Origin: Bacteroidales bacterium
GTDB lineage: Bacteria > Bacteroidota > Bacteroidia > Bacteroidales > F082
Direction: 5' to 3'
Assembly (NCBI GenBank): GCA_017553625.1
Contig: JAFZKP010000013.1
Location: 374-64,373 of the forward strand
DNA length: 64,000 nucleotides
Part shown: one piece after another, positions 16,552-63,215 of the stretch
How positions within the stretch are numbered: the stretch's first letter is position 1
Layout of the letters: the number at the start of each line of letters is the position of its first letter
Position numbers and translations under genes: made by a program
The notes under the pieces: model-generated
The model's database searches: none
What the model saw: the letters and a program-made list of their open reading frames with translations, nothing else
Told to the model about the DNA's origin: nothing

Positions 16552-16574
16552 GATAAATGACTGATTTTCCGTTG

Positions 16575-16582: not shown

Positions 16583-16597
16583 CAAAAAATTTTAAAA

Positions 16598-16666: not shown

Positions 16667-16692
16667 AAAACCGACACCTTCAGGCATCGGTT
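16663..16692 (-). terminator. Rho-independent terminator of the 16718..17500 gene
   Basis: Minus strand reads ccgatgcc-tgaa-ggtgtcgg followed by an 8-T run, about 25 nt after the stop. Confidence 0.7.
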
Positions 16693-38199: not shown

Positions 38200-38766
38200 T
38201 TATCTAGAACTTAGGTATTCTTTGGTTTTAACTTTGACATCATCAATTGCTTCATCAATTGAAACAGGTCTGTTGTCATGTGCATCCAACGATACATTAT
38301 ACATATATGGCAATCCATTATAAAACTTCTCTTTTGAGTGAGTGTGCCCAAAGAAATTAACAGTCCACTCCTTAGGTTTCTTTTCTGTTTCCAAATCGAC
38401 AGTAATTGACGGAAAATGGCTTAGATAATACTCACGGCCTTTATATCGAATTAACTTAGCATATAAAACCTCGATAATGCTTCTTTCATTTTTATATAAA
38501 TCAATTCGAGCATCTGTGTCATGATTGCCAAGAATGATGTGTTTTTTACCTTTCAATCGACGAATAATGGTCATGCCCTCTTCGTTGTTATGTTCTTTTC
38601 CGCCGACCATCAAATCGCCTAGGATGTAAACATCATCATCGTCATTTACTATTTCATTCCAGTTTTTTTCGATAGCGGCATTCATGTCTTCTGCACTTTG
38701 AAATCCTCGTGGTTCATATATAAAGAATCTGTGATATAGGTGTAAATCTGACGTAAGATATATCAT
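38200..38766 (-). CDS. Calcineurin-like metallophosphoesterase
   Basis: 188 aa with 'IYLTSDLHLYH', 'ILGDL', 'LGNHD' and 'FGHTH'. Confidence 0.8.
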   Translation of the reverse strand: MIYLTSDLHLYHRFFIYEPRGFQSAEDMNAAIEKNWNEIVNDDDDVYILGDLMVGGKEHNNEEGMTIIRRLKGKKHIILGNHDTDARIDLYKNERSIIEVLYAKLIRYKGREYYLSHFPSITVDLETEKKPKEWTVNFFGHTHSKEKFYNGLPYMYNVSLDAHDNRPVSIDEAIDDVKVKTKEYLSSR

Positions 38767-46791: not shown

Positions 46792-47493
46792 TTATTCTTT
46801 TCGTATAATCCTTGCGTACAAATGCATTTGATGTTCATGAAAAAAACCTGTTTCTATAGTAAATACTGACTCATCAATGGAGTTGGAAAGAAATAGCTTC
46901 CAACTGTCAATACTCCAGAAATGTATATGTTGTTCATATGTATCGAGTTTTCCGTTAGGAACAGTGATAATAGCGACACCATTTCTGTTTAATGCATCGA
47001 GAATATTTTTAACGGCAATTTGGGGATATAAAAGATGTTCTATTGTCTCTATGCAATAAACAACATCAAATTTTCCATCTATAGGATCGTAAATATCATG
47101 AACGGAGCATAGCAGATCGGGAATCATTAGACTTTTAGTCACGTTAACGCATGATTCAGAAAAGTCACAAGCACAAAACGGATTAGGTTTGTATAATGCG
47201 CTTATTTCTTCACACAATACGCCTGTGCCGCATGACACATCAAGTACTCCTTTCCCCGATATATCTATACCCGTTAGTCTAATTATTGATTTGTAAAATG
47301 GCACCTTTCTTTTAAATCCATAATACGTGTTCCTATTCACAGCTTTATTGATTGATTCCTTGCTATTACGATTAATAGCGGAAAAACCTCTGTCTTTCTT
47401 CTTAATAAAAATAATTTGATATCCAAACATATCCAGCTTATGTCTTGAATACAGTATTCTCCTAAACATATTCTTTTTTTTGTGCGATTTCAA
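46792..47493 (-). CDS. Class I SAM-dependent methyltransferase
   Basis: 233 aa with the 'VLDVSCGTGVL' motif I. An alternative start at M9 (47469) would reduce the overlap with the upstream gene. Confidence 0.8.
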   Translation of the reverse strand: MKSHKKKNMFRRILYSRHKLDMFGYQIIFIKKKDRGFSAINRNSKESINKAVNRNTYYGFKRKVPFYKSIIRLTGIDISGKGVLDVSCGTGVLCEEISALYKPNPFCACDFSESCVNVTKSLMIPDLLCSVHDIYDPIDGKFDVVYCIETIEHLLYPQIAVKNILDALNRNGVAIITVPNGKLDTYEQHIHFWSIDSWKLFLSNSIDESVFTIETGFFHEHQMHLYARIIRKE

Positions 47494-48232
47494 GATTAAC
47501 TAATACACGAAGGTCGATTATCCCTTCATAAGATTTTAATAAATTGTATATTTCTGTGTTTATTTGTTTATCTAAGTAACAATGTCCAATAAATGTTTCT
47601 AGCAAAGCAAGAAAATCATTAGAACTAACAGTGATAATGTTTTCAATCTCTTTATGCTCAACCAATGTGAATTCAGAGCTTTCTTCTATGTCTTTTCTTC
47701 TCTTTTCAATTTTCAGAAGTTGCTTTTGATAATTGCATTCAAATTGTTCATTATAGTGTTTATATATATTTGAGATTTCATTGTTTATTTCGCTATCAAA
47801 CACGCTATAATTGTTCCAATACAAAACCAAATAGCCTTTTTCATTTAATAAATCAGATGCTTTTTTATATTTAATTGACTTATCTATCCAATGAAAAGCT
47901 GTTGCTGAAATAATTCCATCATATTTGTTGCTTGAATAAAAACTCTCAAAGTTACAGCCAATAATCTTTATATTTTTAGTGGCAAACTTATGTTTCAACA
48001 ATGAAACAAAGTGATCACCTGGTTCAACGACTGTCAAATCAGGATGCCACTTTCTATATATTTCATTCGTTGCTATTCCACTCCCAGCTCCTATTTCAAG
48101 TATTTTTGAATTTGAATTAAACCCGCATATGGATGATATTATTTGATATACATCATCAACATAACCAAGTCTTGCAGACTGATATGTTTCATAATATTCA
48201 TTAAAATACCATTTCTGTTTTTCGTCTTTCAT
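47462..48232 (-). CDS. Class I SAM-dependent methyltransferase
   Basis: 256 aa with the 'ILEIGAGSGIAT' motif I. Confidence 0.8.
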   Translation of the reverse strand: MKDEKQKWYFNEYYETYQSARLGYVDDVYQIISSICGFNSNSKILEIGAGSGIATNEIYRKWHPDLTVVEPGDHFVSLLKHKFATKNIKIIGCNFESFYSSNKYDGIISATAFHWIDKSIKYKKASDLLNEKGYLVLYWNNYSVFDSEINNEISNIYKHYNEQFECNYQKQLLKIEKRRKDIEESSEFTLVEHKEIENIITVSSNDFLALLETFIGHCYLDKQINTEIYNLLKSYEGIIDLRVLVNLEIAQKKEYV

Positions 48233-49047
48233 ATAAACATATTAAATGCGGTGATAATTTCTTGTTTTTTTATCTCAACCATACTTTTTGTTATACGATA
48301 TTCTCTATTTATCCTATCACAATCAATATCAATGATATTGTTAACATCTAAAGCGGTTGCTTTTATTCCAAATGTTGAATAATAATCATGAAACTTAAAA
48401 CCATCTCCCAATAGATTATTTGTAAGCTTTATCCAACAATTGGGAATCCCCAAACTATCAGCAACAACCAATCCGTGCAAACTACTGGATATGATACATT
48501 CGCACTCCGCCATTGTTTTAATAATGCTAAGTGGATTGTCTTGTACGTCAATAATAATACTTTTTGAATTATTATTCAAAATATCAATAAAATGCTTTTC
48601 ATGTCTTTCTCTATCATGGGGTATTATTCCTAGTCTATATCTTTTCATTCTCATACTACCAATCAATTCACTTGCCAACAAACCTGCATCTCCAGTAGTA
48701 ATATTTAAAGACTTACCATATAGCTTTTCCAGAAATGCTTTAGACATTTCACCTCTGACTGAAGAAATATTAAAGTCTTTAATAGGCATGATATCATTTG
48801 CTGGTGTCGATAAAAAACCTGCGGACCATATTTGACTGGGAAAACTATTTTCAATTCTTTTTTGATTGTCTATTTGCTGTGTTTTTCGAAAAAAAAGACG
48901 AAGCCCACTTCCAATCCCACTTGTTTCACAACTATACTCATCCGCCCAAGCAACTTTTTTCCCAAATACATGTTCAATTATAATTGGATTTAAGGCATTC
49001 CCGAAGTTCTTTCTGATAGAATAGCATACTTTCACGGTCTTTCCCAT
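48229..49047 (-). CDS. Polysaccharide pyruvyl transferase family protein
   Basis: 272 aa with 'NFGNALNP', 'GIIPH' and 'SSSLHGLVVADSLGIP'. Confidence 0.7.
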   Translation of the reverse strand: MGKTVKVCYSIRKNFGNALNPIIIEHVFGKKVAWADEYSCETSGIGSGLRLFFRKTQQIDNQKRIENSFPSQIWSAGFLSTPANDIMPIKDFNISSVRGEMSKAFLEKLYGKSLNITTGDAGLLASELIGSMRMKRYRLGIIPHDRERHEKHFIDILNNNSKSIIIDVQDNPLSIIKTMAECECIISSSLHGLVVADSLGIPNCWIKLTNNLLGDGFKFHDYYSTFGIKATALDVNNIIDIDCDRINREYRITKSMVEIKKQEIITAFNMFI

Positions 49048-49053
49048 ATCAAA

Positions 49054-49737
49054 CTATTGTTTTATTTTATTTATTATTATTTCTGCATTATTAATACTTG
49101 AATCCTTCATATCAACAATTACTTTATTCCTAACAATTGAATTTGATATTAGCGCCAAATTACTTTCTTTTATCATCAGTAATTCACCCAAAGAATCTTT
49201 ATAAGCAAATCTGTCTTTCTTATCGCGTTGTTTTATTCTATACATTGTGGAATCTAGATCTAATTGACAATCAACATAAAGTACATCAAATGGATTCTCG
49301 TTTATGCTCTTTGTAATCCGTTCTATCAATTCCACTTTCTTTATAACATTATCATGAGGAATTGAAGACAGGAATTGTATTATACCCTCGTCCAAAACAA
49401 TTATTTGTGTTTTGTTATTCCTATACAAGTCGATAACCATAACTGTATACAGCAAATATATTATGGAATAACGATTGAAAGGAAACGAAAGTGCATATTT
49501 TAACAAAAAGGTTTTTGTTTTATAGTTAGTCGGCTTTAATAGCTCAAGTCCAAGACATAAAAAAAGACATAACGGACGATCCCAATACTTGTTTATTTTG
49601 CCTGAAATGTCCGATCTACGCAACACAATGCCAGGATACTCCCTTTGCAAGATTGACAGGATGGAATGAGTTAAAGTTGACTTTCCACAGCCTGGCAAGC
49701 CATATAGTTCTATGATTTTAATATTTGGAAGATTCAT
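49054..49737 (-). CDS. P-loop NTPase/kinase-like hypothetical protein
   Basis: 227 aa with a 'LYGLPGCGKSTL' Walker A and a later 'VLDEG'. Confidence 0.6.
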   Translation of the reverse strand: MNLPNIKIIELYGLPGCGKSTLTHSILSILQREYPGIVLRRSDISGKINKYWDRPLCLFLCLGLELLKPTNYKTKTFLLKYALSFPFNRYSIIYLLYTVMVIDLYRNNKTQIIVLDEGIIQFLSSIPHDNVIKKVELIERITKSINENPFDVLYVDCQLDLDSTMYRIKQRDKKDRFAYKDSLGELLMIKESNLALISNSIVRNKVIVDMKDSSINNAEIIINKIKQ

Positions 49738-49748
49738 GATTCTATGAT

Positions 49749-50819
49749 TTAATCATTCGTTTCAAGAATAGTATATTTGTATTTTTTGTAATTCAAACAC
49801 AAGTGTTTGAACAAACCTTCCACATCCCCTTTTTGCATAAACACATATAGCATAGGGAATGTATTCGCAAAGAATGCTTTGTGTTTAATTATGTCAAATA
49901 ATTCTATGTACTTTTTGCATAAATAATAATGCGATTTTTTGTTGTTTGTCTTAGACCATAACCATTCTATTTCTGAAAAAACACGAGATATTACAAGAAG
50001 ATAATCGGCCTTGTCTTCAATTAAATTATTTGATAACATCACAATGTATTTTCTCGCAAGCAATTGAGATACTATCTTTTTCTGAGAGAAATATTGGGAG
50101 TCCAAAGAATCCTTTCTCTTGCAATAGTGGTAATGTGTGTCGTTAACTAAAACTATATCTTTTGCCTTTATACAAGCATGACGTTGAAACACAAAATCCT
50201 GACCACAAAAAACATCTTCTGGAAATAGAATGTGGTATTTTCGGAGTAATTCTAACTTGTAAACAGCACTCCACCATTGAGCATAAAAGAAGTACTTGTT
50301 TATTGGGATGTAAGACGCAATATCTTTTACTCCAAATGCAGCGCCCTTAACAATATCTGCATCGTTTGCAATGGATTTGAGATAAAGTTTTTCATAAAAG
50401 TCAATATCTAAATAATCATCAGGATCAATAAAACTGGCATATTTACCTGAAGCTATTTTCATCCCAGAATTTCTTGCTCGTGCAACTCCATAATTCTTAT
50501 CATGGGCAATAACCCGAATTCTTTCATCCTTATGTTCATATTCGTGTATTATAGATAATGAATCGTCAGTAGATTTATCATCTATAAGAATTATCTCAAT
50601 ATTGGGAAATGATTGGTTAATGACAGTATCCAAACATCTACGAAGGTATTTCGAAACATTATAACATGGTATAATCACAGAAAAATAGCATCCAATGGGA
50701 TCATCGTTTGTTGATTGTGTATTATGATGTACAAGCATTCCAGAATGGCCTGTAATTAGCCCAGTATTCTTTACCATATCAAAGAGATTTCTATTATTGT
50801 CTGCCTTGTTTGTTTTCAT
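49749..50819 (-). CDS. Glycosyltransferase family 2
   Basis: 356 aa with 'FSVIIPCYNVSKYLRRCLDTVINQSFPNIEIILIDDKSTDDS' and 'DPDD'. The start is uncertain (M1, M15 or M28). Confidence 0.85.
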   Translation of the reverse strand: MKTNKADNNRNLFDMVKNTGLITGHSGMLVHHNTQSTNDDPIGCYFSVIIPCYNVSKYLRRCLDTVINQSFPNIEIILIDDKSTDDSLSIIHEYEHKDERIRVIAHDKNYGVARARNSGMKIASGKYASFIDPDDYLDIDFYEKLYLKSIANDADIVKGAAFGVKDIASYIPINKYFFYAQWWSAVYKLELLRKYHILFPEDVFCGQDFVFQRHACIKAKDIVLVNDTHYHYCKRKDSLDSQYFSQKKIVSQLLARKYIVMLSNNLIEDKADYLLVISRVFSEIEWLWSKTNNKKSHYYLCKKYIELFDIIKHKAFFANTFPMLYVFMQKGDVEGLFKHLCLNYKKYKYTILETND

Positions 50820-51168: not shown

Positions 51169-51756
51169 TCATCTCAACCCTAGACTATCATAACAATGGC
51201 TTGGACCACATTCGTTTCCAATAACCAATCCTTTGATAGTTATAACACGACCAGTTGGCACACCAAGGTTAAAAAGTGCTATTGGATTTTCGTTATTTAG
51301 TCCACCTGCCGATAATCCCTTTAATGTGTAAGCCCAATCAGCCCTACGTGACATATAGTCTCCGGGACCAAGATTGTTCATGTTATTATAATAGGAGTCA
51401 TTGTATTCCCATTTTTTTGATAGAATTGTATCTGGGACAAGAAAAAATCCGTATTTTGTTATAGTTTCAATATTAGTCCAGTCTCCCATAGAAGAATAAC
51501 CTATTGGAAAATCTCGAACCACATTGCCCGAAATAGAATATTTATTATTTACAGCTTTACAAAGGCATTCTATTTTTCCCCATCCATTATGAGTAACTCT
51601 TTCTAGAACAATTTCTGCATTGTCACCAAATTTGCGCCAATGTGTACCAACTAAAAAATGACACCAGAAGGATGTGGTTTTAAAATTATCTGGCGCGGAG
51701 TAATGAACTTTGATTTCAAACATAATTGTTATGGTGGACTTCTTATTATTACACAT
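51169..51756 (-). CDS. Hypothetical protein (orphan, own promoter)
   Basis: 195 aa with no recognisable family. An alternative start is M12 (51723). Confidence 0.5.
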   Translation of the reverse strand: MCNNKKSTITIMFEIKVHYSAPDNFKTTSFWCHFLVGTHWRKFGDNAEIVLERVTHNGWGKIECLCKAVNNKYSISGNVVRDFPIGYSSMGDWTNIETITKYGFFLVPDTILSKKWEYNDSYYNNMNNLGPGDYMSRRADWAYTLKGLSAGGLNNENPIALFNLGVPTGRVITIKGLVIGNECGPSHCYDSLGLR

Positions 51757-51821: not shown

Positions 51822-51829
51822 CAAAGATA
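51822..51829 (-). promoter_or_regulatory. Bacteroidetes -7 promoter box (TATCTTTG)
   Basis: Plus 'caaagata', about 66 nt upstream of the ATG at 51756. Confidence 0.45.
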
Positions 51830-52063: not shown

Positions 52064-53155
52064 TTACACTTTAGAAACTTTCACTTCATTTTCATCAACG
52101 TAATAAGTATATCTTTTGTCGTGAAAAACATAGTTGTCGCCATTGAAAGAGCCTCCAGTGATAACAATTTCTGGCGCGTTAGATATGGTTTCATTGGCTT
52201 TCCATACAGCATAGCGATATGAGTCATCAGGCATTTTGTCAATTCTGATAATATTTCTTGATGTTCGCATAAACAATCCGATTCGCTGGTAGTCGCAAAG
52301 TTCAGGATAGAGATAAGGATTTGCGACAGTTTCTGTCCCGACAAGTTTCATATCGGAGCCATCCCAATGATAGCACCAATATCTATCAGTTAGGCATAAT
52401 TCATCTTCTTCAGCGACATATAGTGTGGAAGTTTTCTCGTCGAAATAATCGAGCCAATCATAGCCTTCGCCATTTGTTCTGAAGTACCAATCAGAAATAA
52501 AATATTCATAAGAAGCATTCCAAAAATCGACGGTTTTCAGACCTTTTTTGGTGAGTTTTGAGATTTCAAAATTCATATATCCGATATTACTACTTTCACG
52601 GAAATATGCTATCGTCAAATAATAGTTACAAGTTTTTCCTTTTAAGATATGAAGACTATTAGGCGATAACACGTACCAATTATCTTCGCTGGCATCAGGC
52701 TTTTGACATAAAACTTTTCCGTTCCAACGATACTGGATAATTGTATGAAAATCGCTCATTGTATGAGCATGCGGATAATCCCATGTGTAATAACGAACAT
52801 TCCCATCAGGTGAATCAATGATGTCTATGTTTGCATAATGCTGTAAAGAATCAAATGGATAGTTCATAGAGGAAGCGTTGGATCGAACGATTTGTTCAAA
52901 CAAGTCGTAATCAAAAGCGTGTCGATCAAATGGCAATTCATCAATAGACATGCCGTTGGGGAAGAAATATTGGAGGAGTTTTCGCTCGGCTTCTTCCATT
53001 GAAGAGAACGTTATGCTGCTTGACTTGCCATCTTTGACATAATGGGTGCCAATGTTGAAGGTTTGGCTTTGTGGTTTGTTGCCTACATTGTCACAGCAAG
53101 AAAACAACATGGCGATAATCGTATAAATGATTGTTGAAATGATAGATTTTTTCAT
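52064..53155 (-). CDS. Hypothetical lipoprotein
   Basis: 363 aa with lipoprotein signal 'IIAMLFSCCDN'. W/Y-rich. It is the last gene of the tight minus-strand operon. Confidence 0.65.
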   Translation of the reverse strand: MKKSIISTIIYTIIAMLFSCCDNVGNKPQSQTFNIGTHYVKDGKSSSITFSSMEEAERKLLQYFFPNGMSIDELPFDRHAFDYDLFEQIVRSNASSMNYPFDSLQHYANIDIIDSPDGNVRYYTWDYPHAHTMSDFHTIIQYRWNGKVLCQKPDASEDNWYVLSPNSLHILKGKTCNYYLTIAYFRESSNIGYMNFEISKLTKKGLKTVDFWNASYEYFISDWYFRTNGEGYDWLDYFDEKTSTLYVAEEDELCLTDRYWCYHWDGSDMKLVGTETVANPYLYPELCDYQRIGLFMRTSRNIIRIDKMPDDSYRYAVWKANETISNAPEIVITGGSFNGDNYVFHDKRYTYYVDENEVKVSKV

Positions 53156-53175
53156 GGCTGTATGTTTTGATTTTG

Positions 53176-53679
53176 TTAATTATCAATCTTTTGATCAAAT
53201 TCAGACAGGTCATCATCATCTGATTCTGAAGTGCCCTTGTCAATAATCGACTCTTCGAATTGTTTTTTGTCAAGTACTACTGGGTAGCCGGTGGCATTTG
53301 TGGCGTTAAAGACAATGGAATTGATGTCGTTGTATTTGCTCTTTGGAATCGTATCATTTAATATTTTATGAATACTTTCACTGTCAAGAGATTCATCAGT
53401 TATGTTGACAAAGACCACATAGACAAACATAAGGTCATGAGCTTTGAGTCCGCAATCTATTGCTGTTGAAATATTGACTTTGATTTCAATCATATAATAG
53501 AGATCCTTGCTTATCCTTGCTGAAAGCACCTCTGTATTTATAATGACCGCAAAAGTTTTTTCAGTCGGATATAGTATTAATTCGGGAGTACCCGGACATT
53601 CTATATGAAGTTGCCCAAGAAATGTTCTCGTAATTGTAAATGGAAAATCTTCATAAGGATTATTTGTTACTGTGTCCAT
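53176..53679 (-). CDS. Hypothetical protein, possibly SecB-like chaperone fold with acidic tail
   Basis: 167 aa. The overall pattern (N-terminal beta region, 'IPKSKYNDINSIVFNATNATGYPVVL', acidic C-terminus 'SESDDDDLSEFD') resembles SecB. This is by eye only. Confidence 0.5.
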   Translation of the reverse strand: MDTVTNNPYEDFPFTITRTFLGQLHIECPGTPELILYPTEKTFAVIINTEVLSARISKDLYYMIEIKVNISTAIDCGLKAHDLMFVYVVFVNITDESLDSESIHKILNDTIPKSKYNDINSIVFNATNATGYPVVLDKKQFEESIIDKGTSESDDDDLSEFDQKIDN

Positions 53680-53715
53680 AATATGTCTGTTTATTTATTG
53701 TTTTTGTAGGCAAAG

Positions 53716-54606
53716 CTATATAAAAAGCAGATCTTTTCCATACCTTGAATCTGCAATATCTCGTTTAATGTGAATTTCAAGCATCATATCAATAATATCT
53801 TCAAAATCAATGTTTTCGAATTTATTTCTATTTAGAAAGCATTCTATATCTTCTCGCAAATTGTTGGAATAATTTGATCTATAGTAGAATCCTTCAGTAA
53901 TTGCATCGGTTATAATATTGAATGCGGTACTCTTGTCTTGACGTTTAAGACATATTTTTGCCATTAATGTTTTTAACACGAATAGTCTATCATAATATTT
54001 TTTATAAGAATCTTCAGCCAGATTGATAACAACCATATTAGTTAATCGTTCGGCCGCCTGCAACTCTCCAAGTTCAGTTTGGCATAAAATTTCGCCGAGT
54101 TGTAATGATGACCTACATGTTGAGTTTTCCATGGTTTGTTCAAAAGTCATGGTAAAATAACTTGCAGAAACGGATAGTGTTTGAAAACCTGCCAACGCTT
54201 TTTGAGTTTCATTTAAAAAGAATAAAGTGAAACATTTATTACATCCTGTTACCAATAGACTGTATTGATATGCTTCACTATTAACGTCTTCTTTTATGAC
54301 ATAGAACTCAGCAAGATGTAGAAAGAACAAAGCTTTATCATATTCGTTTCGTTGGAAATGCTTTTTAGCTTCCAAGTTGTAATAGTGAGCTATATTAAAA
54401 TTCAGATTTTCATCGTCTTTGATTCCCCAGTACCAATAATCTTGGGTGACAATAAAATCGTAGTCTTCGTCAAAATTTTCATTGACAATAAGCAAAAGCT
54501 TTTCGATTCTATCAATTGTGGCTTTATCAATGATATAATCATGATAAGAAGAGATTTCATTGATTAAAGAATTTATTTCATGTGCTTGAGTTTGTTGCGT
54601 TTCCAT
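53716..54606 (-). CDS. Hypothetical cytoplasmic helical (TPR-like?) protein
   Basis: 296 aa with no signal or TM run and a helical-repeat-like composition. Confidence 0.55.
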   Translation of the reverse strand: METQQTQAHEINSLINEISSYHDYIIDKATIDRIEKLLLIVNENFDEDYDFIVTQDYWYWGIKDDENLNFNIAHYYNLEAKKHFQRNEYDKALFFLHLAEFYVIKEDVNSEAYQYSLLVTGCNKCFTLFFLNETQKALAGFQTLSVSASYFTMTFEQTMENSTCRSSLQLGEILCQTELGELQAAERLTNMVVINLAEDSYKKYYDRLFVLKTLMAKICLKRQDKSTAFNIITDAITEGFYYRSNYSNNLREDIECFLNRNKFENIDFEDIIDMMLEIHIKRDIADSRYGKDLLFI

Positions 54607-54642
54607 AATAACGGTGTGTTTATAAATGCGAGAATAAAACTA

Positions 54643-55557
54643 TTATTTGATTGACAAAAACTTGTGCGATTGAGATAGGAACTCAATTGTAGGGTCGAAA
54701 TAACGATGGCTTAACATCTTTTTTGATGATTGGACTGCAGCATCTTTAAAACTTGTTGTTGAGTCCCATGTTGTATCAAAAAACACCCATCTGTAATTAA
54801 TATATGCGGCGTTTATGACATGGTTGCTGATGTCGTTAGAAACATACTCATCAGTCCATAAACCATTTGTTGATGCACCTAATGCAAAACATCTGATTGT
54901 AATTGTTGGCAATCCTATTGCACGCATCATTGTCTGTGCGAGGTCGCCGTATCCACTACATACAGCTTTTTTATTGTTAAACACGTCTGAAGCTCTGGTT
55001 AAAGACAAGTCGATACTCTTTTTGTTATACAGATTCATATAAAAAGCGTCTAAGTTGTATATTATGTTTTCGGCAATATAATCGTGAATTATCAAGGCTT
55101 TTTGATAATTGTCGTAACATGTTTTGGTTATTTCTTTAGCTTTATTTATGACAGATTTATTATCCGAGTGATTTAGGTATTTTGAAACATTAGTTGACGA
55201 CAACTTGGTTATAAAATTGACATTATTGCCATATACATCTGCCTTTGAAAAAGCAACTCCATTCTCGGAGTTTGTTATGTTTGTGCAAAACAACTCTGTG
55301 CAATATGATGACAAATATTCTATTTTATATCCACTCAAGAGGTATTTCCCGTTTTGAATGGATTTGAAATTTAGGACTATATGATTGGCATTGTGGTTGT
55401 TTACCCTTTTTTCATATTTTTTCTTGTCGGCTGTTTGCAACGTAAAATATAGATTGTCATATATACGATCGTTTGGTAAATAAATATGAACGGATTTCCC
55501 AGTGGCAAACAGCTTTATGTTATGATATTGATTGTAGGTTGTACTAAAGGTGTTCAT
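54643..55557 (-). CDS. Transglutaminase-like cysteine peptidase-fold protein
   Basis: 304 aa with the Cys-His-Asp pattern 'KKAVCSGYGDLAQTMMRAIGLP...NHVINAAYINYRWVFFDTTWD'. No signal peptide. Confidence 0.75.
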   Translation of the reverse strand: MNTFSTTYNQYHNIKLFATGKSVHIYLPNDRIYDNLYFTLQTADKKKYEKRVNNHNANHIVLNFKSIQNGKYLLSGYKIEYLSSYCTELFCTNITNSENGVAFSKADVYGNNVNFITKLSSTNVSKYLNHSDNKSVINKAKEITKTCYDNYQKALIIHDYIAENIIYNLDAFYMNLYNKKSIDLSLTRASDVFNNKKAVCSGYGDLAQTMMRAIGLPTITIRCFALGASTNGLWTDEYVSNDISNHVINAAYINYRWVFFDTTWDSTTSFKDAAVQSSKKMLSHRYFDPTIEFLSQSHKFLSIK

Positions 55558-55562
55558 GATGT

Positions 55563-58505
55563 TTAGACTTTAGAAGTTTTTAATAATTCATTGTAAATAA
55601 ATACAGCAAACAATCCTGCGGTGCTTGAACCGAACAACGGCTCAGTGCCAAGCGTAATTTGCTTGCCATTCCTTTTTCCGTATGATGCCCAGCAGACAAT
55701 AAGTGTCTCTCCATCTGATAGTACACACCACCCGTCTTTACCGCCTCTCCAATTTGACTTGCCGGAGCTTGTGCCAGTTTTGGAGTAGAAAGTTTTATAT
55801 TTAGGAAGTTTATTGCGGTGCTCTTGCATTGTGCCGGTTTTGATTGTTTCAGACAAAGCGTCTTTAATCACATTAATACTATTGGTTACCCAAATGCGTT
55901 TTGTGAAATTTGCAGTGTCATAAAGACATTCCGCTTGAAGTTTAATCCTTATGCCATCATTAAATATGGTTTGGTAAAGCTGAGCGATATCAAATACTGT
56001 CATATGGCGGTTTCCCAAAGGGTAATTATAGGTGTCGGAACACAAGTCCTTATGAGGCATGATGCCAATTGATTCGTATGCCGATTCAACGCTCTCGAAT
56101 ACTGGCTTGGGAGACATGACATCACATATATTGACAAATGGCGCATTCAAACTCTGCGATAGTATTGTCTTGATTGATACTTGTTTGTTTTTCCATGGAT
56201 GGGTTGCATTGGCTGGTGTCTTCCTTTTTCCGACTTTACCATCGAAAAGAGTAAGATTTTGAGAGGCTACTTTACGGAGCATTTCAAGTATTATTGCCGG
56301 TTTTCCCAATGATCCAATAGGAAAACCTTGTCCGAAATCGTTATAATCAACTAATCCTGATGAATAATGACCGATAACATGACCAGTTTTGACATCAATC
56401 ACCATAGCGGCAACCTGAAGTTCACTTCCGTTTTTATAGTACACCTTGGAAGACTTCAATTTGTTGTAAGCCTTTAATAAAGCATTCTCGTTTTGCAGAG
56501 AGATATATGTGTTGTGGCGCTCAGCAGATTTGAAATGCTTCTTAATGTATGAACGTGTGCCGGTGGAAATGTCGCTGTTGTATGGACGATTAACAAAATG
56601 GATATCGCAACTGTTCATTTCATTATACTCTGATTTTTTGATAAGCCCTCGGTTTTTCCACTGTTTTGCCATATCAATTGTCTCGCTTTTGGCTTTTGAT
56701 GAATCAACCTGGTAGCCTGAATGAGGCAAAGTCCTGACAAGATACATTTGTTCTAGTTGGTTCAAACTGCCGACAGGCTTGCCAAAAGCAAACAGCGATG
56801 CTGCATTTAGACCACGATACCCTCTGCCACCATGGAAACAAGCCACATTAATGTAGTCAGTCATTATTTGTTCTGGCGTTTCGGTCAATGATAACATATA
56901 ACCGCCAATCTGATCAGTGGTTTTACGTGCCAAATCTCTTGGGAAGCCAGAAGCATCGATATAAGTTAAATTTTTGATAACCTGTGAGTTGATATTACTA
57001 CCGCCACGACCGGCAAAGAAAGATGCGAGAGAAATTCCATGCCAGTTGGATTTGTTTGGGAACCAGGAGTTTTGCCTGAAGAAACCTCTGTCTTCCTGTG
57101 TTGTGATGCATTTTTTTACAAAATCGGGTATTTCATTATATTCTAACGGAACATAGTAAAAATCGTGTTCGTCGTCGAGCCATAGAACATCTCCATTTGT
57201 ATCGATGACACATGAGTTGTTCTTGTATATACGGATACAATCAAGCTTTTTAGGAAACACAGTGATTGTGATAAAGGTGAACAAGATTATTCCGAAGGCA
57301 AGAGCTGATGATTTACCAAACGATATCGAAACTGTTTTGAAATAATTGGTGATTCTGCTAAATGGCATGTAAAGACTATCATTATTTCTAATGCTGGAGA
57401 TAACCGAACCTATTAAAAGAGGAATAAAATATCCCAAGACAACAGCGGCAAATATAACGGCTGCGATGAACAACGTGGTCAGCAAGAACATAAACATGTA
57501 TTTGGCTTTGAAAACCGTGAACAACAGAAGCAATAAGGCTGAAATGCCACCGACAATTTGTGTGGTTCGTTTGTTGATGCGTATATTATAAGGTGTCGCC
57601 AGTAGTGGCAAATCTCTGTTGGTATCAAAAAGAATTGTTGCGAGGTAATTCCAGCAGTGTGCGAAAAATTTTCGTAGAATCAGGTACACGACAGCCATCA
57701 CCAATATTGACGTTATTACAAGTGATAAGTCGTTGCGAAGCCACTGAAGTCCGATGAAATTAGGAATACTTAACATCAAACTGACCATATAAGAAACTGC
57801 GAGCATCAACCATGGTGTGCCCAAGACTTTACGCTCGACATTGCTGGTTATAATGTATTTCTTAATAGAAGATTCCAACATGGCGGTGTTGGTTTTATAT
57901 GTTTTCACCCAGTAGATTGCCAAAAAATAAAGGATATATGAAAGATTGTTCAAGATGGTGAATACCAAATTGGCAGTCATATTCAATCCGTTGATTTTTT
58001 GGATGTGTAACATGATTTGGATGCCGCATAAAACTATTGCTCCGGCTATGCCAAACAAAAACATGTCGCTTTCGGTGTAAACGTCGGTTTTGAAACGTTT
58101 GTTCATAGCGGTGAAGAAACCGTATATGCTATGTGTAAGGATGAGCGTCGCTATCAGTTTGACCAGTGGCGATAAGAAAAGCCATAGGATATGATTGGCA
58201 GGGTTCTGCGTCTCGCTATACAGGGAAAACACTCCGCGAAGCATAATGCCGAATTGAGTGATGTCGTTAGAAAAAATCTCCGCGAATATGGCGGAGACTG
58301 CTAGCTCGGCAGCCCCCGCACATAATGCGGCAACAACAATGATAATAACACTAACACATAACTCTGCATAAAACACCGTCCTATGATTCGAAAAAGTCTC
58401 TTTAATATGCTTACATGTCAAACGCACGGTGTCTTTTATAAGATTCCCTAATAATATTAGAAATATTACTAATGAAAACAGGGAGATTATAATGATACTT
58501 TTCAT
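55563..58505 (-). CDS. Class A penicillin-binding-protein-like (GT51 + transpeptidase) fused to ~400-aa polytopic N-terminal membrane domain
   Basis: 980 aa with about ten hydrophobic segments in residues 1-410. GT51 motifs are 'TQEDRGFF', 'GGSNINSQVIKN' and 'RKTTD'. Transpeptidase motifs are 'GSLGKP' (SxxK), 'SLN' (SxN) and 'KTGTS'. Confidence 0.75.
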   Translation of the reverse strand: MKSIIIISLFSLVIFLILLGNLIKDTVRLTCKHIKETFSNHRTVFYAELCVSVIIIVVAALCAGAAELAVSAIFAEIFSNDITQFGIMLRGVFSLYSETQNPANHILWLFLSPLVKLIATLILTHSIYGFFTAMNKRFKTDVYTESDMFLFGIAGAIVLCGIQIMLHIQKINGLNMTANLVFTILNNLSYILYFLAIYWVKTYKTNTAMLESSIKKYIITSNVERKVLGTPWLMLAVSYMVSLMLSIPNFIGLQWLRNDLSLVITSILVMAVVYLILRKFFAHCWNYLATILFDTNRDLPLLATPYNIRINKRTTQIVGGISALLLLLFTVFKAKYMFMFLLTTLFIAAVIFAAVVLGYFIPLLIGSVISSIRNNDSLYMPFSRITNYFKTVSISFGKSSALAFGIILFTFITITVFPKKLDCIRIYKNNSCVIDTNGDVLWLDDEHDFYYVPLEYNEIPDFVKKCITTQEDRGFFRQNSWFPNKSNWHGISLASFFAGRGGSNINSQVIKNLTYIDASGFPRDLARKTTDQIGGYMLSLTETPEQIMTDYINVACFHGGRGYRGLNAASLFAFGKPVGSLNQLEQMYLVRTLPHSGYQVDSSKAKSETIDMAKQWKNRGLIKKSEYNEMNSCDIHFVNRPYNSDISTGTRSYIKKHFKSAERHNTYISLQNENALLKAYNKLKSSKVYYKNGSELQVAAMVIDVKTGHVIGHYSSGLVDYNDFGQGFPIGSLGKPAIILEMLRKVASQNLTLFDGKVGKRKTPANATHPWKNKQVSIKTILSQSLNAPFVNICDVMSPKPVFESVESAYESIGIMPHKDLCSDTYNYPLGNRHMTVFDIAQLYQTIFNDGIRIKLQAECLYDTANFTKRIWVTNSINVIKDALSETIKTGTMQEHRNKLPKYKTFYSKTGTSSGKSNWRGGKDGWCVLSDGETLIVCWASYGKRNGKQITLGTEPLFGSSTAGLFAVFIYNELLKTSKV

Positions 58506-58523
58506 GTTTATCGGAATTAAAGA

Positions 58524-59303
58524 TTATTTGGCCTTGAAACTTTGAACATTTTGACTAAGATTGTCACAAAATTTATATTCTTTAATCCCAATCTTATCAA
58601 ACAATTTGCTGTAAAAGCGCTTTAAATCGGCTTTTTTAACACCTTCTTCAGATGTCATCAGATAAAACCGCACTTTAGGTTGAATTTCTCTTATTTTTAT
58701 GACAGCTTCCTGAAGGAGATAAGGGTCAATTTTTTCGTAATATTTCTCGAATGCTTCATCGCTATAAGGGATGCTTTTATAAAAGTTCGCAGCATCCGAA
58801 TATTCTACTCCATCACTGAATATCATAATATATGATGTGGAATCAGCGGTTAACTCTATCATTGATTTAAGTAGCACATCCACAATGGGAGAACGTTTCT
58901 GTTTGGTGGCTGCAATCGATTTTCCAGCCGTTAGTTGTTTGTCAATCATCTGCATGATATTGTTAGCTTTCCGGATTTCAGCGGCCTTATTATTTGGAAT
59001 CTTGCTTTTCTGTGGCAAAGCGATAGATTCAGTCGTCAACAACAAGTTACCTGTTGATTCAATAAAGCCAAATTTCATCGTAAAACGTTGATTATAATCT
59101 ATTGTAGCAATCCCAGTGGTTTGAAGGAATTTCGGAAGATTAGTGTGAATGTCATTGTATATGTCATTATACTGACTTTCTGAAGTGCAGTCAACAAGCA
59201 TGGTAACACTTGTGTGGCTAACTATTGTATCTTGATTGGCAGAGCTGCAGCTTGATAAAATAATTTGAGACAGCAGCATGGTTATGATTATGAGCTTTTT
59301 CAT
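58524..59303 (-). CDS. Hypothetical lipoprotein (possible vWA-like fold)
   Basis: 259 aa with lipoprotein signal 'LLSQIILSSCSS'. 'MLVDCTSES' and 'IMIFSDGVE' resemble MIDAS-containing strands. Weak, by eye. Confidence 0.55.
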   Translation of the reverse strand: MKKLIIITMLLSQIILSSCSSANQDTIVSHTSVTMLVDCTSESQYNDIYNDIHTNLPKFLQTTGIATIDYNQRFTMKFGFIESTGNLLLTTESIALPQKSKIPNNKAAEIRKANNIMQMIDKQLTAGKSIAATKQKRSPIVDVLLKSMIELTADSTSYIMIFSDGVEYSDAANFYKSIPYSDEAFEKYYEKIDPYLLQEAVIKIREIQPKVRFYLMTSEEGVKKADLKRFYSKLFDKIGIKEYKFCDNLSQNVQSFKAK

Positions 59304-59315
59304 GGTTATAAAGTA

Positions 59316-60539
59316 TTAGTCGTTATTGTAATAATGTTTAATGTCATCGAGAGTCCATTCTTCATACACAATCTCATCCTCTGGAATATCTTTCATGTCG
59401 TGTAACATTCTTTTACGCATGCTACGATTGTCGCACATGATGTGAAGCTGTTTCTGGTACGAGTCTTTGAGCCGCATGCAAATAGCGTCACGCTCTTCTG
59501 TTTTTCTATCGATGGCTTCTTTTATTTCTGACAAAAGATTAAATATCTCCAGCAGGCAACTTAAATAAGTATTATTAATCTCATCTTTTATCGTTTGTTC
59601 AGATAAAAACTCTTCTTCCATCATTTCGTTATGCACCTTGACTTCTATCAATCTCTTATCTCTGAATGATAATTCTTGTGATTCTTCTTGGACTTTTCCA
59701 ATATGAGCTGTGTCGGCCTTATTGCCGATTACATCACAAATAACTCCAGTAATACAGAAGAATGCCGCCAACATCAATTCTGCAAGTCCTGGGCGATCAA
59801 TGAGTTTTTTGAAAAAACCATCTACATTGACAACCTCCTGTTCATTGCCAAAACTAAATTCTATAGCTGCAATATTTTCTTGAGCGTTCAATGAAATGTA
59901 GATTACATGAAACATAGTGACTAAACTAAGTGCAATGGTTGATATAAGCATTACTTGGACAATCTTGTTCCCGTTTCGTTTATGCAACCAATGAAGCAAT
60001 GCGGATATGCCGAAAATTGCCAATACAATAACAAAACGTAAAATAATCTCCATAGTACTCAAAACTTCGTGCTGAAGAGAGTAAGTGGCAAAGTATGTGA
60101 TGATCTCCAGTCCCAAAGTAACCAAAAGCAAAATTCCAAAACTACTAAAATTTTTCTTTTTAGAACCAGTTTTAAGTTGTTGAGACTCTTTTGCATAAGT
60201 AGTAGTTAACTTGGAAAGAAATCTCTCTGTTTTTTTGCCTTCAGAAAGCTTTTCACTGATTGCTTCAATTTTCTGATTGTGTCTTTCGACATTGAGATTA
60301 TATATCTCTGTCTTCTTGTTAAAATCATCTGCAATAGAAGATACCTGCTTGCGTAATTCTACGTTTTCAGTATCTATACGACGTATTTCTTTTTTCTGTG
60401 ATTCAATTTCCGGTGAAAAGGAATCAAGTTGTGCATTTTCACCTATAGTATTAATCCTTATTCCATTCTCATCTCTGGACGGAGCTTGACCTGAATCAAT
60501 GTCTTGAAGAGCCAGGTCTATTTGGTTTGCGTGTGTCAT
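59316..60539 (-). CDS. Membrane protein with flanking coiled coils (4 hydrophobic segments)
   Basis: 407 aa. N-terminal and C-terminal heptad-like K/E-rich regions flank 'FGILLLVTLGLEIITYF', 'FVIVLAIFGISALLHWL', 'VMLISTIALSLVTMFHVIYI' and 'LMLAAFFCITGVICDVI'. Confidence 0.65.
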   Translation of the reverse strand: MTHANQIDLALQDIDSGQAPSRDENGIRINTIGENAQLDSFSPEIESQKKEIRRIDTENVELRKQVSSIADDFNKKTEIYNLNVERHNQKIEAISEKLSEGKKTERFLSKLTTTYAKESQQLKTGSKKKNFSSFGILLLVTLGLEIITYFATYSLQHEVLSTMEIILRFVIVLAIFGISALLHWLHKRNGNKIVQVMLISTIALSLVTMFHVIYISLNAQENIAAIEFSFGNEQEVVNVDGFFKKLIDRPGLAELMLAAFFCITGVICDVIGNKADTAHIGKVQEESQELSFRDKRLIEVKVHNEMMEEEFLSEQTIKDEINNTYLSCLLEIFNLLSEIKEAIDRKTEERDAICMRLKDSYQKQLHIMCDNRSMRKRMLHDMKDIPEDEIVYEEWTLDDIKHYYNND

Positions 60540-60565
60540 AGTGTATTGTTGTTAAGTGGTTATTG

Positions 60566-60709
60566 TTAGTTGTTTGTTAGTGTGTTGAGTAACAGAATTA
60601 CCTTCTGTTGGGTGACGGAGATTTTCTCTTCGAGCGCAATACGTTGCGCTTTCTGTTTAGGTGATTCGAGGTCACCTAATTCCTGTTGGTAGTTAATTGT
60701 TGTCTTCAT
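60566..60709 (-). CDS. Small ORF (47 aa) at head of the operon
   Basis: My translation gives MKTTINYQQELGDLESPKQKAQRIALEEKISVTQQKVILLLNTLTNN. A -7 box lies 28 nt upstream. It is below the track size cut-off. Confidence 0.35.
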   Translation of the reverse strand: MKTTINYQQELGDLESPKQKAQRIALEEKISVTQQKVILLLNTLTNN

Positions 60710-60736: not shown

Positions 60737-60744
60737 CAAAGATA
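60737..60744 (-). promoter_or_regulatory. Bacteroidetes -7 promoter box (TATCTTTG) for the 60.7->52.1 kb operon
   Basis: Plus 'caaagata'. The genes downstream are separated by only 5-36 nt. Confidence 0.5.
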
Positions 60745-61589
60745 ATGTCAAAAATCAGCTTGTACTATATAGTATCATTATAGTATAAAATCTCCAAATT
60801 TTAAATAATAAAAAACTACGTTTATATAAGGTTTGTGGTTTGTGCTGGTAGTATATGTACCTATGATTATCATGATTAATAATCCCCAAGTATGTTACCA
60901 TAAAAATTGAAAAGTATAGCACTTTGTAATCATCCGCGGCTTGATGGTTTCTGCTCAATACAATGTCCCGTTTAGCCGCTTTTCAAATGTTTCGTATTTT
61001 GGTTCTTGCTTCTATACAATGTTCACGTTGCAATTGTGAGTGTGTAGGCGGGAAAGCGGTGTTCGCTTCCGCGCTGCCTTAAAAGCCTTTTTGCCCCCTG
61101 CAAGGGTATAACAAGCGTCGCTAAAAAAATCTCCACACCTCCGCTTCGCTCCGGGTAGTATTTTTTTGCGCCGCCCTTGCATGGGGTCTCACGTTTTGTG
61201 TCTCTGCACAATAGTAGGCTTTCGTCTCGCGCCCATGTTATCGTTTCAATTGAACGCACTTCAAAAAGGCTTTTAGGCGGCAGCTTGGTCGCTCACTCGG
61301 GGCTGCCTCTCGGCTGGGGATGCTGCAAAATTTGCTTGTCCCTGCATCTTTTCATGTCAAGGCATAACTCAACGCCACTGCATCCAAATCCCAGCCGCCA
61401 CCCCCTTGTGTTAAAGCGCGCCGCCCGGTGCGCCCAGCGGTGTCAAAAATTCTTTGGCGCATTGAAAGTTCCTGCACAAATTCAATGTACACGGGCGCCA
61501 AAAATTTTTGCCACTAACCGCCAGTCGCCCTCCCTTAGCAGGTCCGGGCTTCTCCTGGCGGCGCTGGTCGCAGCGCGCGTCGCGCGCAA

Positions 61590-61636
61590 CCCCCAGAAAA
61601 AACGTCTCCACCTCCGTTCCGCCGTTTTTCTGGGGG
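61590..61636. other. Strong hairpin in noncoding GC-rich region
   Basis: 'cccccagaaaaaacg' pairs with 'cgtttttctggggg' (one bulge) around an 18-nt loop. Confidence 0.6.
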
Positions 61637-61755
61637 CGCCTCATTGTCATTCGGCGGCGTGCGCAAAGCGACCTCACTTGAGCTGCGTCCGGTCATTCCA
61701 TTTCCCTTCCTTGCCCAGACCCACATGTTTTTTAGCGTCCTCTCCTCTTGATTGT

Positions 61756-61806
61756 TTCCGAGTAAATCCCGAGTTCTCTTAGTTCTCTGAGTGCTCCGAG
61801 TTTTTT
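61756..61806 (+). repeat. Copy 1 of ~48-bp direct repeat (TTCCGAG.AATCCCGAGTTCTCTTAGT.CT..GAGTGCTCCGA)
   Basis: Aligns with 62176..62223 with only a few mismatches and one indel. Confidence 0.8.
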
Positions 61807-62175
61807 AGTCCCTGCTCAATTCATCGTTTACGGCTTCTATACAATGCCGCAGCATCAGTATAGCGACAGCCGTATCCCAAAGGGAACCCTCGCCTGACGC
61901 TACACTCATGCTGCTTCCGGGCAACACAATGCGTCACTTTTTGGTTCTCGGCTTCTATTGAAAGTTCCTGCTCCAAGGCAAAATCTTTCGTTCCGCTCAT
62001 CGTCTAACTCCGCTCCGCTCCATTAGACGCTTCACTTCACTCAAGAATTTGCCGACAGTGTTGCGTCCCCACCCAACCCGCCCTTTTAGATGCGGCATCT
62101 TTTTGAAAACGTCAATAAATTCAAGTGTTTTCGTTTGTTTTGGTATTTCTTTTTGACTGTAAACCTATTCCAGGA

Positions 62176-62223
62176 TTCCGAGCAATCCCGAGTTCTCTTA
62201 GTCCTCCGAGTGCTCCGATTTTT
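62176..62223 (+). repeat. Copy 2 of ~48-bp direct repeat
   Basis: See 61756..61806. Confidence 0.8.
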
Positions 62224-62506
62224 AAGGAAAAAACTGATTGATTGGTGATTCAAAAATTCAAAAAAACATGCAAAATTAGCTCGTTCCGCTTGTCCGTCAA
62301 GGTCAAGCCCTTCGGGTTGCTTCGGGAAAAATCTTCCTTTTCTCCGCTCCTCTGCGAAAAGAGTATTTTTCTCTCGCAAACCTTTGACTGCCTGCGCTTC
62401 TCTTCGCTGGCAAAAAAGCATCTTTTTTTTATTTTTTTGTTTTCATTTCGTTTTGGTGAAAAATTTTAATACAGCTGTCGCAACGTCTGATTTTTCTGAC
62501 CTATCA

Positions 62507-62544
62507 ACTGGAAATCGAGAGCAAAACCTTGAAATCGAAAGCAC
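62507..62544 (+). promoter_or_regulatory. Conserved leader motif, copy 1 (ACTGGAAATCGAGAGCAAA..GAAATCGAAAGCAC)
   Basis: Contains the internal direct half-sites GAAATCGAGAGCA and GAAATCGAAAGCA. It is repeated at 63219..63256 upstream of the next paralogue. Confidence 0.6.
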
Positions 62545-62630
62545 CACAGTCCGACGCCTCATCTCGAACCGCTTTTTTCATTAAAATTGCTCCCTAATCA
62601 CTTTTTATTAACCCTAAAAACATCAAGATT

Positions 62631-63215
62631 ATGGCAAAAAACAAAATCAAAAACAGCGACTGCCCTGGTGACGGCACCATCGGCAAGGTCATCGACTTCA
62701 TCTCAAAGACAGACCAGGAAAAGATTAAGATTGCAAAAGCTTTTCTCTATCCGCTCATCCGACTTCTCAACATCGGTCTGAAGTACGTGGCCAAGAAAAA
62801 GACTCCATACAAGTACGCCGTAACAGAGATGGTGCGTCACGCACTCTCAAGCACAGGCGAAGCCCACGAGTACTTCATCGATTTCTCCAAAATCATCCTC
62901 TCACGTGGCGACCTCACTTCTCCACAGGTCGAAGATGTAAGGTTTACCGGTGGTAAGTGCTTCATCCAGATGAGCGACAACTCCGGCGAGGGTGATGCTC
63001 GTCCCGACGACATCTCCATGCTCCTTTTCTACAATGTCACGAAACTGGAGTTCATCTGCTACCTTCAGGGAGGCACTCGCTCAACCGCTTCTCAACAATA
63101 CGACATCCCCGAGCATTGGGCAGGTGATGTGGTTCATGCCTACATCACCATGAAGTCAGCCGACGGCAAACTTGTCTCCGACTCCCAGTATCTCGGCGAT
63201 TACATCGCCAACTGA
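62631..63215 (+). CDS. Hypothetical protein, paralogue of the downstream DUF6266-like gene
   Basis: 194 aa. The C-terminal half shares a pattern with the next gene ('DNSG.G.A..D..M..YN', 'IP..W.GD.V..Y..M.S.DG'). Confidence 0.7.
   Translation: MAKNKIKNSDCPGDGTIGKVIDFISKTDQEKIKIAKAFLYPLIRLLNIGLKYVAKKKTPYKYAVTEMVRHALSSTGEAHEYFIDFSKIILSRGDLTSPQVEDVRFTGGKCFIQMSDNSGEGDARPDDISMLLFYNVTKLEFICYLQGGTRSTASQQYDIPEHWAGDVVHAYITMKSADGKLVSDSQYLGDYIAN

Follow-up and report, generated by a model that had tools for sequence, protein, structure and literature searches.

A rare operon core in uncultured Bacteroidales built around a polytopic class-A penicillin-binding protein, a candidate accessory element of defence islands

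Penicillin-binding proteins of class A (aPBPs) are among the best-studied bacterial enzymes, and an aPBP lineage anchored by a polytopic domain and accompanied by obligate vWA and coiled-coil partners was found in none of the literature, family libraries and structure libraries that we searched. Such a lineage is predicted from a minus-strand operon at 52064-60709 of a 64,000-nt stretch of Bacteroidales DNA (contig JAFZKP010000013.1, positions 374 to 64,373), hereafter the window. The first four genes of this operon, A to D, form a module that fits no known family and would be an aPBP machine with novel partners. The module is best read as a rare, horizontally moving accessory element of defence or conflict islands, and may be, with a probability that we put somewhat below one half (about 0.45), a mobile and regulated peptidoglycan synthesis and repair complex used in conflict. 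An earlier note on this DNA had held that the combination of genes in the operon matches no known operon, and this stands: neither PADLOC, PHROGs and the PDB nor the literature searched has anything that matches it, and that literature describes neither the module nor any penicillin-binding protein (PBP) in a defence system.

Eight tightly packed minus-strand open reading frames (ORFs) make up the operon, and the genes of the module come first: gene A (47 aa, 60566-60709), gene B (407 aa, 59316-60539), gene C (259 aa, 58524-59303) and gene D (980 aa, 55563-58505). The earlier note had spoken of nine genes, whereas its own list also holds eight. The close packing that it described is exact, with gaps of 5-36 nt (26, 12, 18, 5, 36, 36 and 20 nt in 5' to 3' order from gene A to the last gene, which encodes a 363-aa lipoprotein), and the predicted Bacteroidota-type -7 promoter box TATCTTTG (TAnnTTTG) lies just where it was placed, on the minus strand at 60737-60744, 27 nt 5' of the first ATG. 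The 47-aa ORF that heads the operon is likewise present.

A metagenome scan with alignment A1 added 17 related loci. The ORFs of 28 loci were clustered for synteny, and 25 of the 28 have upstream DNA. Homologues of B, C and D are present in every one of these informative loci (25/25), in the same order and on one strand, across about 15 lineages and down to 22-38% identity, that of the PBP falling to about 30%. The genes that follow are far less constant: a transglutaminase gene follows the PBP gene in 7/28 loci, a member of the 363-aa lipoprotein family follows the PBP or transglutaminase gene in 8/28, the genes for a 296-aa protein and for a 167-aa protein with an acidic tail occur in 4/28 and 3/28 respectively, and the most distant loci share none of these four 3' genes. 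As B, C and D are always found together and the 3' genes vary, the unit is therefore the first four genes (60709 to 55563) and the other four are cargo. The synteny elsewhere on which the earlier note made its proposal depend is thus borne out for B-C-D but not for eight genes as one conserved system. That all eight genes form one obligate system of synthase, transglutaminase, SecB-like chaperone and lipoproteins is accordingly very improbable: the 5-36 nt gaps, the single upstream promoter box in the window and the complete gene order in L001-L004, with seven of the eight genes in L011, would agree with it, but the 3' genes appear in only 3 to 8 of the 28 loci and in differing combinations, locus L018 with a PBP 89% identical carries a TerY-P triad instead of the transglutaminase and acidic-tail genes, and the distant loci lack all four, so that synteny already contradicts such a system. 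An operon of eight tidily arranged genes may, as this one shows, consist of a conserved core with lineage-specific cargo.

The family is very rare. It comprises 28 PBP clusters in 5.8 billion proteins, a profile search with the membrane domain of D returned 49 representatives from 1.84 billion proteins. Among 185,579 species genomes the family was found in 4, all of them metagenome-assembled genomes of uncultured Bacteroidales. The identical locus is found on four metagenome contigs of Porphyromonas-like Bacteroidales, with PAD_porph, C25 peptidase, BspA leucine-rich repeat and Por tail markers. Pointers to mobility are the AT-rich DNA and the transposase or integrase genes near module loci. 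The GC content of the operon is 0.34-0.39 against 0.44-0.51 in the housekeeping or core part of the window, which upholds the AT-richness claimed in the earlier note; its assignment of the genes to island cargo is plausible, but the sole integrase of the window, at 29981-31216, lies 21 kb from the operon. The transmembrane (TM) domain, searched by tblastn, matched none of 50,697 phage records and none of 72,556 plasmids, there are no relatives in IMG/VR, and none of the eight operon proteins has a significant match in PHROGs; a phage origin was rejected on these results.

Gene D encodes ten hydrophobic segments followed by Transgly and Transpeptidase domains, both of which exceed the Pfam gathering scores, as the earlier description of a 980-aa fusion to a class-A PBP had it. 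Hydropathy and an AlphaFold2 (AF2) model delimit an N-terminal ten-TM domain (aa 1-430, 57216-58505, minus strand), after which come the GT51 peptidoglycan glycosyltransferase domain (aa 453-602, 56700-57149, minus strand; Pfam Transgly 5.8e-17) and the transpeptidase or penicillin-binding domain (aa 699-924, 55734-56411, minus strand; Pfam Transpeptidase 1.5e-8). The nearest solved relatives of D are E. coli PBP1B and similar proteins (E about 4.5e-10), and the NCBIfam models PBP_1c (6.5e-29) and PBP_1a (5.6e-30) match about equally well, both far under their cut-offs. The topology predicted from hydropathy and the positive-inside rule has the N-terminus outside and the PBP part in the periplasm. 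Across 33-36 divergent members the GT51 motifs E471-D472, GGSNxNxQxxKN and R527-K528-x-x-[ED] are kept, the third reading RKxxE in most lineages and RKTTD, ending in D, in the clade of the window, and the transpeptidase motifs S732-x-x-K735, S785-x-N787 and K909-T-G are kept family-wide in the same members. The conservation of the catalytic motifs in all these members indicates that bifunctional aPBP activity is under selection, and D is probably a catalytically competent, bifunctional enzyme. Judged by its motifs, it is a class-A PBP by catalytic definition with a non-canonical architecture: the single N-terminal membrane anchor usual for class-A PBPs is replaced by a 430-aa domain of ten segments.

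This ten-TM domain is seen essentially only fused to the present PBP lineage, most matches being 980-1050 aa long. Its residues R90, Q169, G252 and P418 are invariant, and N135 and P248 are kept in at least 90% of the sequences. The AF2 model of the domain has a predicted local distance difference test score (pLDDT) of 73 and a predicted template modelling score (pTM) of 0.79, the AF2 models in this study having been built from shallow alignments of 9 and 13 sequences. The structure search suggested in the earlier note gave no match to the ten-TM domain in the PDB (Foldseek, best E 0.15 and TM-score below 0.2) but did find matches for the product of gene C, as described below. There is likewise no match in BFVD, an internal repeat (5+5) was not detected, and aa 1-430 match no Pfam or NCBIfam family, the SEDS, MurJ and other lipid II-handling families included.

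The partners of D are no less unusual. The product of gene C carries a lipobox and is a predicted periplasmic lipoprotein; its AF2 model (pLDDT 80, pTM 0.78) finds in the PDB a Foldseek top 50 dominated by vWA folds, among them the Sec23/24 trunk, TFIIH p34/p44, Ku, integrin and the CLCA1 VWA domain, with a best E-value of 7.8e-6 and a probability of about 1, although with TM-scores of only 0.3-0.54. No vWA family matched in Pfam or NCBIfam at E up to 0.1, nor did a PDB sequence profile search find one. The modelled structure nevertheless supports a divergent vWA fold, a protein- or ligand-binding module, as the earlier note had supposed for this lipoprotein. The motifs D38-x-T40 and S163-D164-G..E167 are conserved, and the metal-ion-dependent adhesion site (DxSxS...T...D) is partly kept: D38-x-T40 and D164 are invariant and the second serine is replaced by E, T, P or N.

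The protein encoded by gene B is predicted to reside in the inner membrane, with four TM segments (134-271) between two long helical or coiled-coil regions, both predicted to be cytoplasmic, which bears out its earlier description as a 407-aa membrane protein with flanking coiled coils. Conservation extends to a cytoplasmic motif at the N-terminus and to the motif D-I..YYN at the C-terminus, R168 and D399 are invariant in a 19-sequence alignment (A9), and no significant match was found in Pfam, NCBIfam, PADLOC or PHROGs. Gene A specifies a small, hydrophilic protein with neither a TM segment nor a family match. In most related loci the 407-aa homologue is directly preceded on its 5' side by a hydrophilic ORF of 45-69 aa, and in several of those remaining a small upstream ORF is seen in the gene calls; these ORFs have in common the motif M-[KRT]-[PTG]-T..[YF]..[DE][FIL] and a C-terminal amphipathic helix, and in distant loci they overlap or abut the next gene (-4 to +3 nt).

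To examine the surroundings of the related loci, 131 non-redundant proteins encoded nearby were scanned with PADLOC, and selected results were followed up. Five loci (L008, L020, L023, L018 and L019; profile scores of 1.3e-47 for TerY, 1.5e-23 for PP2C and 3e-53 for the kinase STK_OB) have a complete TerY-P triad interleaved with the module, in two arrangements. In L008, L020 and L023 the order is TerY, 407-aa homologue, TerY, PP2C, STK_OB, small ORF, vWA protein, PBP and transglutaminase, and in L018 and L019 it is TerY, small ORF, 407-aa homologue, vWA protein, PBP, TerY, PP2C and serine/threonine kinase (STK), with a 296-aa homologue after the PBP in L018 and not in L019. In L018 two landmarks of the window operon are kept, and between them the triad stands where the window has its transglutaminase and acidic-tail genes. 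TerY-P, a TerY vWA protein with PP2C and a Ser/Thr kinase, has been validated as a system against phages (Gao et al., 2020, as relayed in PMC11090510), and TerY-P-like modules are cited as stand-alone anti-phage systems (PMC11090510). Duplicated TerY-like vWA genes bracket part or all of the module at 6791-18808 of L018 and 3811-13957 of L008. Such duplicated genes flank cassettes in type III-A CoCoNuT defence operons, where their presence is unexplained (PMC11090510), and the bracketing in L008 and L018 has the same layout of a cassette between two TerY genes; the module could help to explain the TerY-P triads flanking membrane cassettes, a matter left open in that work. TerY-P is an optional add-on in the relatives that stands outside the core, and the window, in which tblastn found no homologue of TerY, PP2C, the kinase or BrxL, lacks the triad. 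The core resembles TerY-P in holding a vWA-fold protein, but C is predicted to be periplasmic and only an SDG strand motif is common to the two. C as a paralogue of TerY was considered and rejected, the local match covering 31 columns with an hhalign probability of 29%.

Other loci carry other cassettes. In L007, L015 and L017 the operon continues after the PBP gene with a gene for a 202-aa protein and one for a BrxL-like ATPase (PADLOC BrxL 7.5e-168), AbiEi and AbiEii flank L005, HipA flanks L034, and L029 has a Mu-type transposase together with PP2C; further PADLOC matches among the neighbours are PDC-S01, mad2/3 and a DRT-type reverse transcriptase.

Gene order, domain identities, conserved active sites, rarity, defence-rich context and mosaicism are observed, whereas complex formation, gating and a protective role for the core are inferred. 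A to D would probably form an envelope-spanning complex in which D, a bifunctional class-A PBP, would be held in the inner membrane by its ten-helix domain, C would be a lipoprotein with a vWA fold in the periplasm, B would cross the membrane with its four TM segments and extend two coiled-coil arms into the cytoplasm, and A would be a small cytoplasmic protein. The output would be local peptidoglycan polymerisation and cross-linking, and the activity of D may be gated by its own membrane domain together with B and C, in a manner comparable to the gating of PBP1A and PBP1B by Lpo lipoproteins but with a link to the cytoplasm. The likely job of such a complex would be to reinforce, reseal or remodel the wall when phage, lytic effectors or wall-active compounds attack the envelope; a part in wall repair is established for aPBPs (PMC7002073). 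The four 3' genes of the window would be exchangeable cargo plugging into this core, with a TerY-P triad or BrxL-like ATPase taking the same place in other lineages, and the cytoplasmic cassettes (TerY-P, BrxL-like ATPase, transglutaminase) would modulate the core. Should the module prove to be a synthase complex under regulation, it would offer a new, self-contained model for the gating of an aPBP across the membrane.

Several points weigh against this proposal of a synthesis and repair complex used in conflict. The argument for physical contact among A to D comes from synteny alone, and no homology detected in the sequences ties B or C to known aPBP regulators. None of the eight operon proteins, nor the 195-aa protein encoded next to them, matches a PADLOC model (PADLOC-DB v2.0.0, E up to 0.1). 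The defence-island context is guilt by association without a background rate, and several of the PADLOC matches among the neighbours are generic, such as a kinase or a radical S-adenosylmethionine (SAM) enzyme matched as 'pVip'. No partner cassette can be recognised in the most distant loci, the module of L007, L015 and L017 adjoins the housekeeping genes for prolyl-tRNA synthetase (ProRS) and anaerobic ribonucleotide reductase (NrdD), and the searched phage, plasmid and IMG/VR collections do not contain the module. Finally, the third GT51 motif in the clade of the window is RKTTD and not RKxxE.

A more specific but doubtful proposal is that the core is an envelope-anchored immune system of a new kind with a dedicated peptidoglycan synthase as its effector. 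B, C and the ten-helix domain would sense a breach or infection signal and then switch on local wall synthesis, so that the sacculus would be resealed or thickened against genome entry or lysis, or lipid II would be sequestered to arrest the cell. TerY-P, the BrxL-like ATPase and the transglutaminase-like enzyme would tune or relay the signal, and the fast-diversifying B would face the invader. Were the module to protect against phages or lytic effectors, wall synthesis would join the repertoire of immune effectors.

The earlier note had pictured an envelope-remodelling, exclusion or abortive-infection module, which fits the defence-rich neighbourhoods, although phage exclusion or abortive infection is guilt by association. 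In an abortive mechanism a signal through A, B and C, or through a TerY-P, BrxL or transglutaminase cassette, would make the ten-TM domain of D open or disrupt the membrane, or its glycosyltransferase drain lipid II and undecaprenyl phosphate, and growth would halt before the phage cycle is completed. We consider such a toxic effector improbable. The defence-rich neighbourhoods would suit it, as would the presence of TerY-P or the BrxL-like ATPase within the operons themselves, a polytopic domain without known fold that has conserved polar residues (R90, N135 and Q169) and the rarity, patchiness and mosaicism that are also seen in defence genes; both periplasmic active sites are however kept family-wide, which a pure pore effector would not need, there is no similarity to known membrane effectors or PADLOC models, and we know of no precedent for a lipid II sink among defence systems.

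The close relatives of the window module are recombination mosaics. L011 is 95% identical to the window in the 407-aa protein and 92% in the vWA protein, and 71, 83 and 91% in the membrane, glycosyltransferase and transpeptidase domains of the PBP respectively; the corresponding values are 43, 61, 93, 88 and 84% for L018 and 25, 61, 90, 90 and 83% for L014. B is thus 25-43% identical where D is 84-93% identical (L014 and L018), and the pattern is reversed in L011. The 407-aa protein diverges among near neighbours as much as in the whole family, which points to allele exchange or diversifying selection. These features bear on whether the module is a plain accessory wall synthase, spare or specialised, with its own regulators and no defence role, the nearby defence genes merely sharing variable regions, an account that we regard as rather unlikely, if less so than a toxic effector. 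It might provide a low-affinity PBP that confers tolerance to beta-lactams or glycosyltransferase inhibitors, or might serve niche-specific wall modification. Mobile low-affinity PBPs are a known resistance route (mecA) and hence a precedent, the aPBP motifs are intact, one lineage has its module at a chromosomal site beside ProRS and NrdD, and polysaccharide-modifying genes (GT2, pyruvyl transferase and methyltransferases) adjoin the window operon. A plain synthase would, however, leave unexplained the TerY-P triads placed between module genes in two arrangements, the in-operon BrxL-like ATPase, the shuffling of B alleles and their extreme divergence, and the recurrence across lineages of a small cytoplasmic protein and of a 4-TM partner with two coiled coils.

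Genes for a 437-aa radical SAM enzyme and a 48-50 aa ORF, which look like the maturase-precursor pair of a ribosomally synthesised and post-translationally modified peptide, lie directly 5' of the module in L011 (6183-7496), L013 (6119-7600), L018 (5177-6653) and L019. Of the 28 loci, 11 have radical SAM or SPASM genes, and the pair is absent from the corresponding position of the window. Extra PBPs are self-resistance genes in beta-lactam producers, and by that precedent the PBP module could be the immunity of a producer to a wall-active peptide made by these adjacent genes, a quite unlikely reading for which the positions in the four loci and the 11/28 count can be cited. The link is missing in most lineages, including the flank of the window operon and all the distant loci, the position and orientation of the radical SAM gene vary where it is present, and no transporter or leader-peptidase genes are seen beside the module.

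Comparison of the proposed synthesis and repair complex with characterized systems gives partial resemblances, and those to PBP-Lpo pairs, Zorya and TerY-P-flanked cassettes are analogies not backed by homology. As in the PBP1A-LpoA and PBP1B-LpoB/CpoB systems of E. coli, D combines GT51 and transpeptidase domains, with all catalytic motifs present, and is encoded with an envelope lipoprotein which could regulate it. Unlike PBP1A and PBP1B, D is anchored by a ten-helix domain without known fold rather than by one TM helix, and between its glycosyltransferase and transpeptidase parts it lacks a docking domain of the UB2H or ODD type. The vWA fold predicted for C is unrelated to LpoA or LpoB, B and A are extra partners, and the module is accessory and very rare where the E. 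coli pairs belong to the core genome. The ZorAB proteins of Zorya form a complex in the membrane that binds peptidoglycan through one unit and has a long coiled-coil tail in the cytoplasm; conceptually similar here are the coupling of a periplasmic part in contact with the wall to a multi-TM protein that has long coiled coils on the cytoplasmic side, the defence-island setting and the variable cytoplasmic partners. No sequence or fold relationship to Zorya was detected with Pfam or PADLOC, however, there is no MotAB-like stator, and the wall-contacting part is a synthase. In the yfhM-pbpC pair, PBP1C is accompanied by a periplasmic lipoprotein alpha-2-macroglobulin, with a proposed role in 'defence and repair' of the periplasm. 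There too an accessory aPBP shares an operon with a periplasmic lipoprotein, but our loci have no macroglobulin homologue, the architecture and partners are different, and PBP1C lacks a polytopic domain. BlaR1 and MecR1 resemble D in that mobile DNA encodes a penicillin-binding domain outside the membrane joined to a membrane domain of several helices, and differ in that D has a full GT51 domain and no repressor or resistance-gene partners; an HExxH zinc-protease motif is absent from aa 1-440 of D, and no peptidase family matched.

The four accessory genes of the window lie downstream of D on the minus strand. The 304-aa protein (54643-55557) matches Transglut_core (PF01841) at 1.9e-14 and 54.3 bits, against a cut-off of 23, its triad C200, H246 and D261 is invariant in five homologues, and a PDB profile search matches it to transglutaminase-like cysteine proteases such as 3isr. 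Neither this protein nor any homologue has a signal peptide, and the earlier assignment as a cytoplasmic transglutaminase-like protein agrees with these data. The 296-aa protein (53716-54606), also cytoplasmic and in the earlier note a putative helical-repeat protein, has no match in Pfam, NCBIfam, PADLOC or PHROGs, and its gene is confined to close relatives. The 363-aa protein (52064-53155) is W/Y-rich and has the lipobox LFSCC, in keeping with its earlier description as a lipoprotein; its uncharacterised family contains no Pfam domain, and it has no match in NCBIfam either.

The 167-aa acidic-tail protein (53176-53679) had been taken as possibly SecB-like. A weak resemblance exists (NCBIfam 1e-5, 25.4 bits against a cut-off of 143; Pfam 1.8e-3, 18.6 bits against a cut-off of 26), so that a SecB-like fold is possible, but a SecB identity falls under every curated threshold, a PDB profile search found nothing, and hhalign to E. 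coli SecB gave a probability of 0.2. The same domain forms the N-terminus of proteins of 372-377 aa encoded beside an AAA_2 ATPase in L011 and L013. These belong to a separate set with the AAA_2 ATPase and a Metallophos phosphoesterase (L011 17766-22252, minus strand; L013 18725-21983), which in L011 also includes a WG-repeat protein. The window retains only the Metallophos gene of this set, at 38200-38766. Elsewhere in the window are genes for a Schlafen/AlbA_2-HATPase_c_4-wHTH protein and an AAA_14/DUF4143 ATPase (35085-36548 and 15274-16677), homologues of which recur near the module in L014 and L032, the Schlafen/AlbA_2 protein being found in L014 as in the window.

On the operon strand between 51.0 and 61.3 kb there are nine TAnnTTTG matches, four of them intergenic. 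A second intergenic match, TAGCTTTG at 53711-53718, overlaps the stop codon of the 296-aa gene and could be a candidate internal promoter for the last two operon genes. A sigma-70 promoter and terminator scan, uninformative for this phylum, gave counts equal to those of shuffled sequences, and the window contains no Rfam elements at gathering scores. The next downstream gene (51169-51756, 195 aa) lies 307 nt from the operon and has its own TTATCTTTG box at 51822-51829; it is therefore a separate unit and was ruled out as an operon member. Just 3' of the operon, at 46792-50819 on the minus strand, are genes for a GT2 glycosyltransferase, a 227-aa protein of unknown function, a polysaccharide pyruvyl transferase and two SAM methyltransferases, a block that we place outside the conserved module because it is shared by identical loci only. 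The region 5' of the operon (60750-62600) has no Rfam or plasmid match, is poor in ORFs, has a GC content of 0.44-0.47 and contains dispersed direct repeats, for example the pair at 61765-61804 and 62184-62223 with 93% identity. Beyond it, at the edge of the window, the DUF6266 gene at 62631-63215 is the first in an array, next to the island, of five tandem DUF6266 paralogues on the longer contig (L001 2440-5875).

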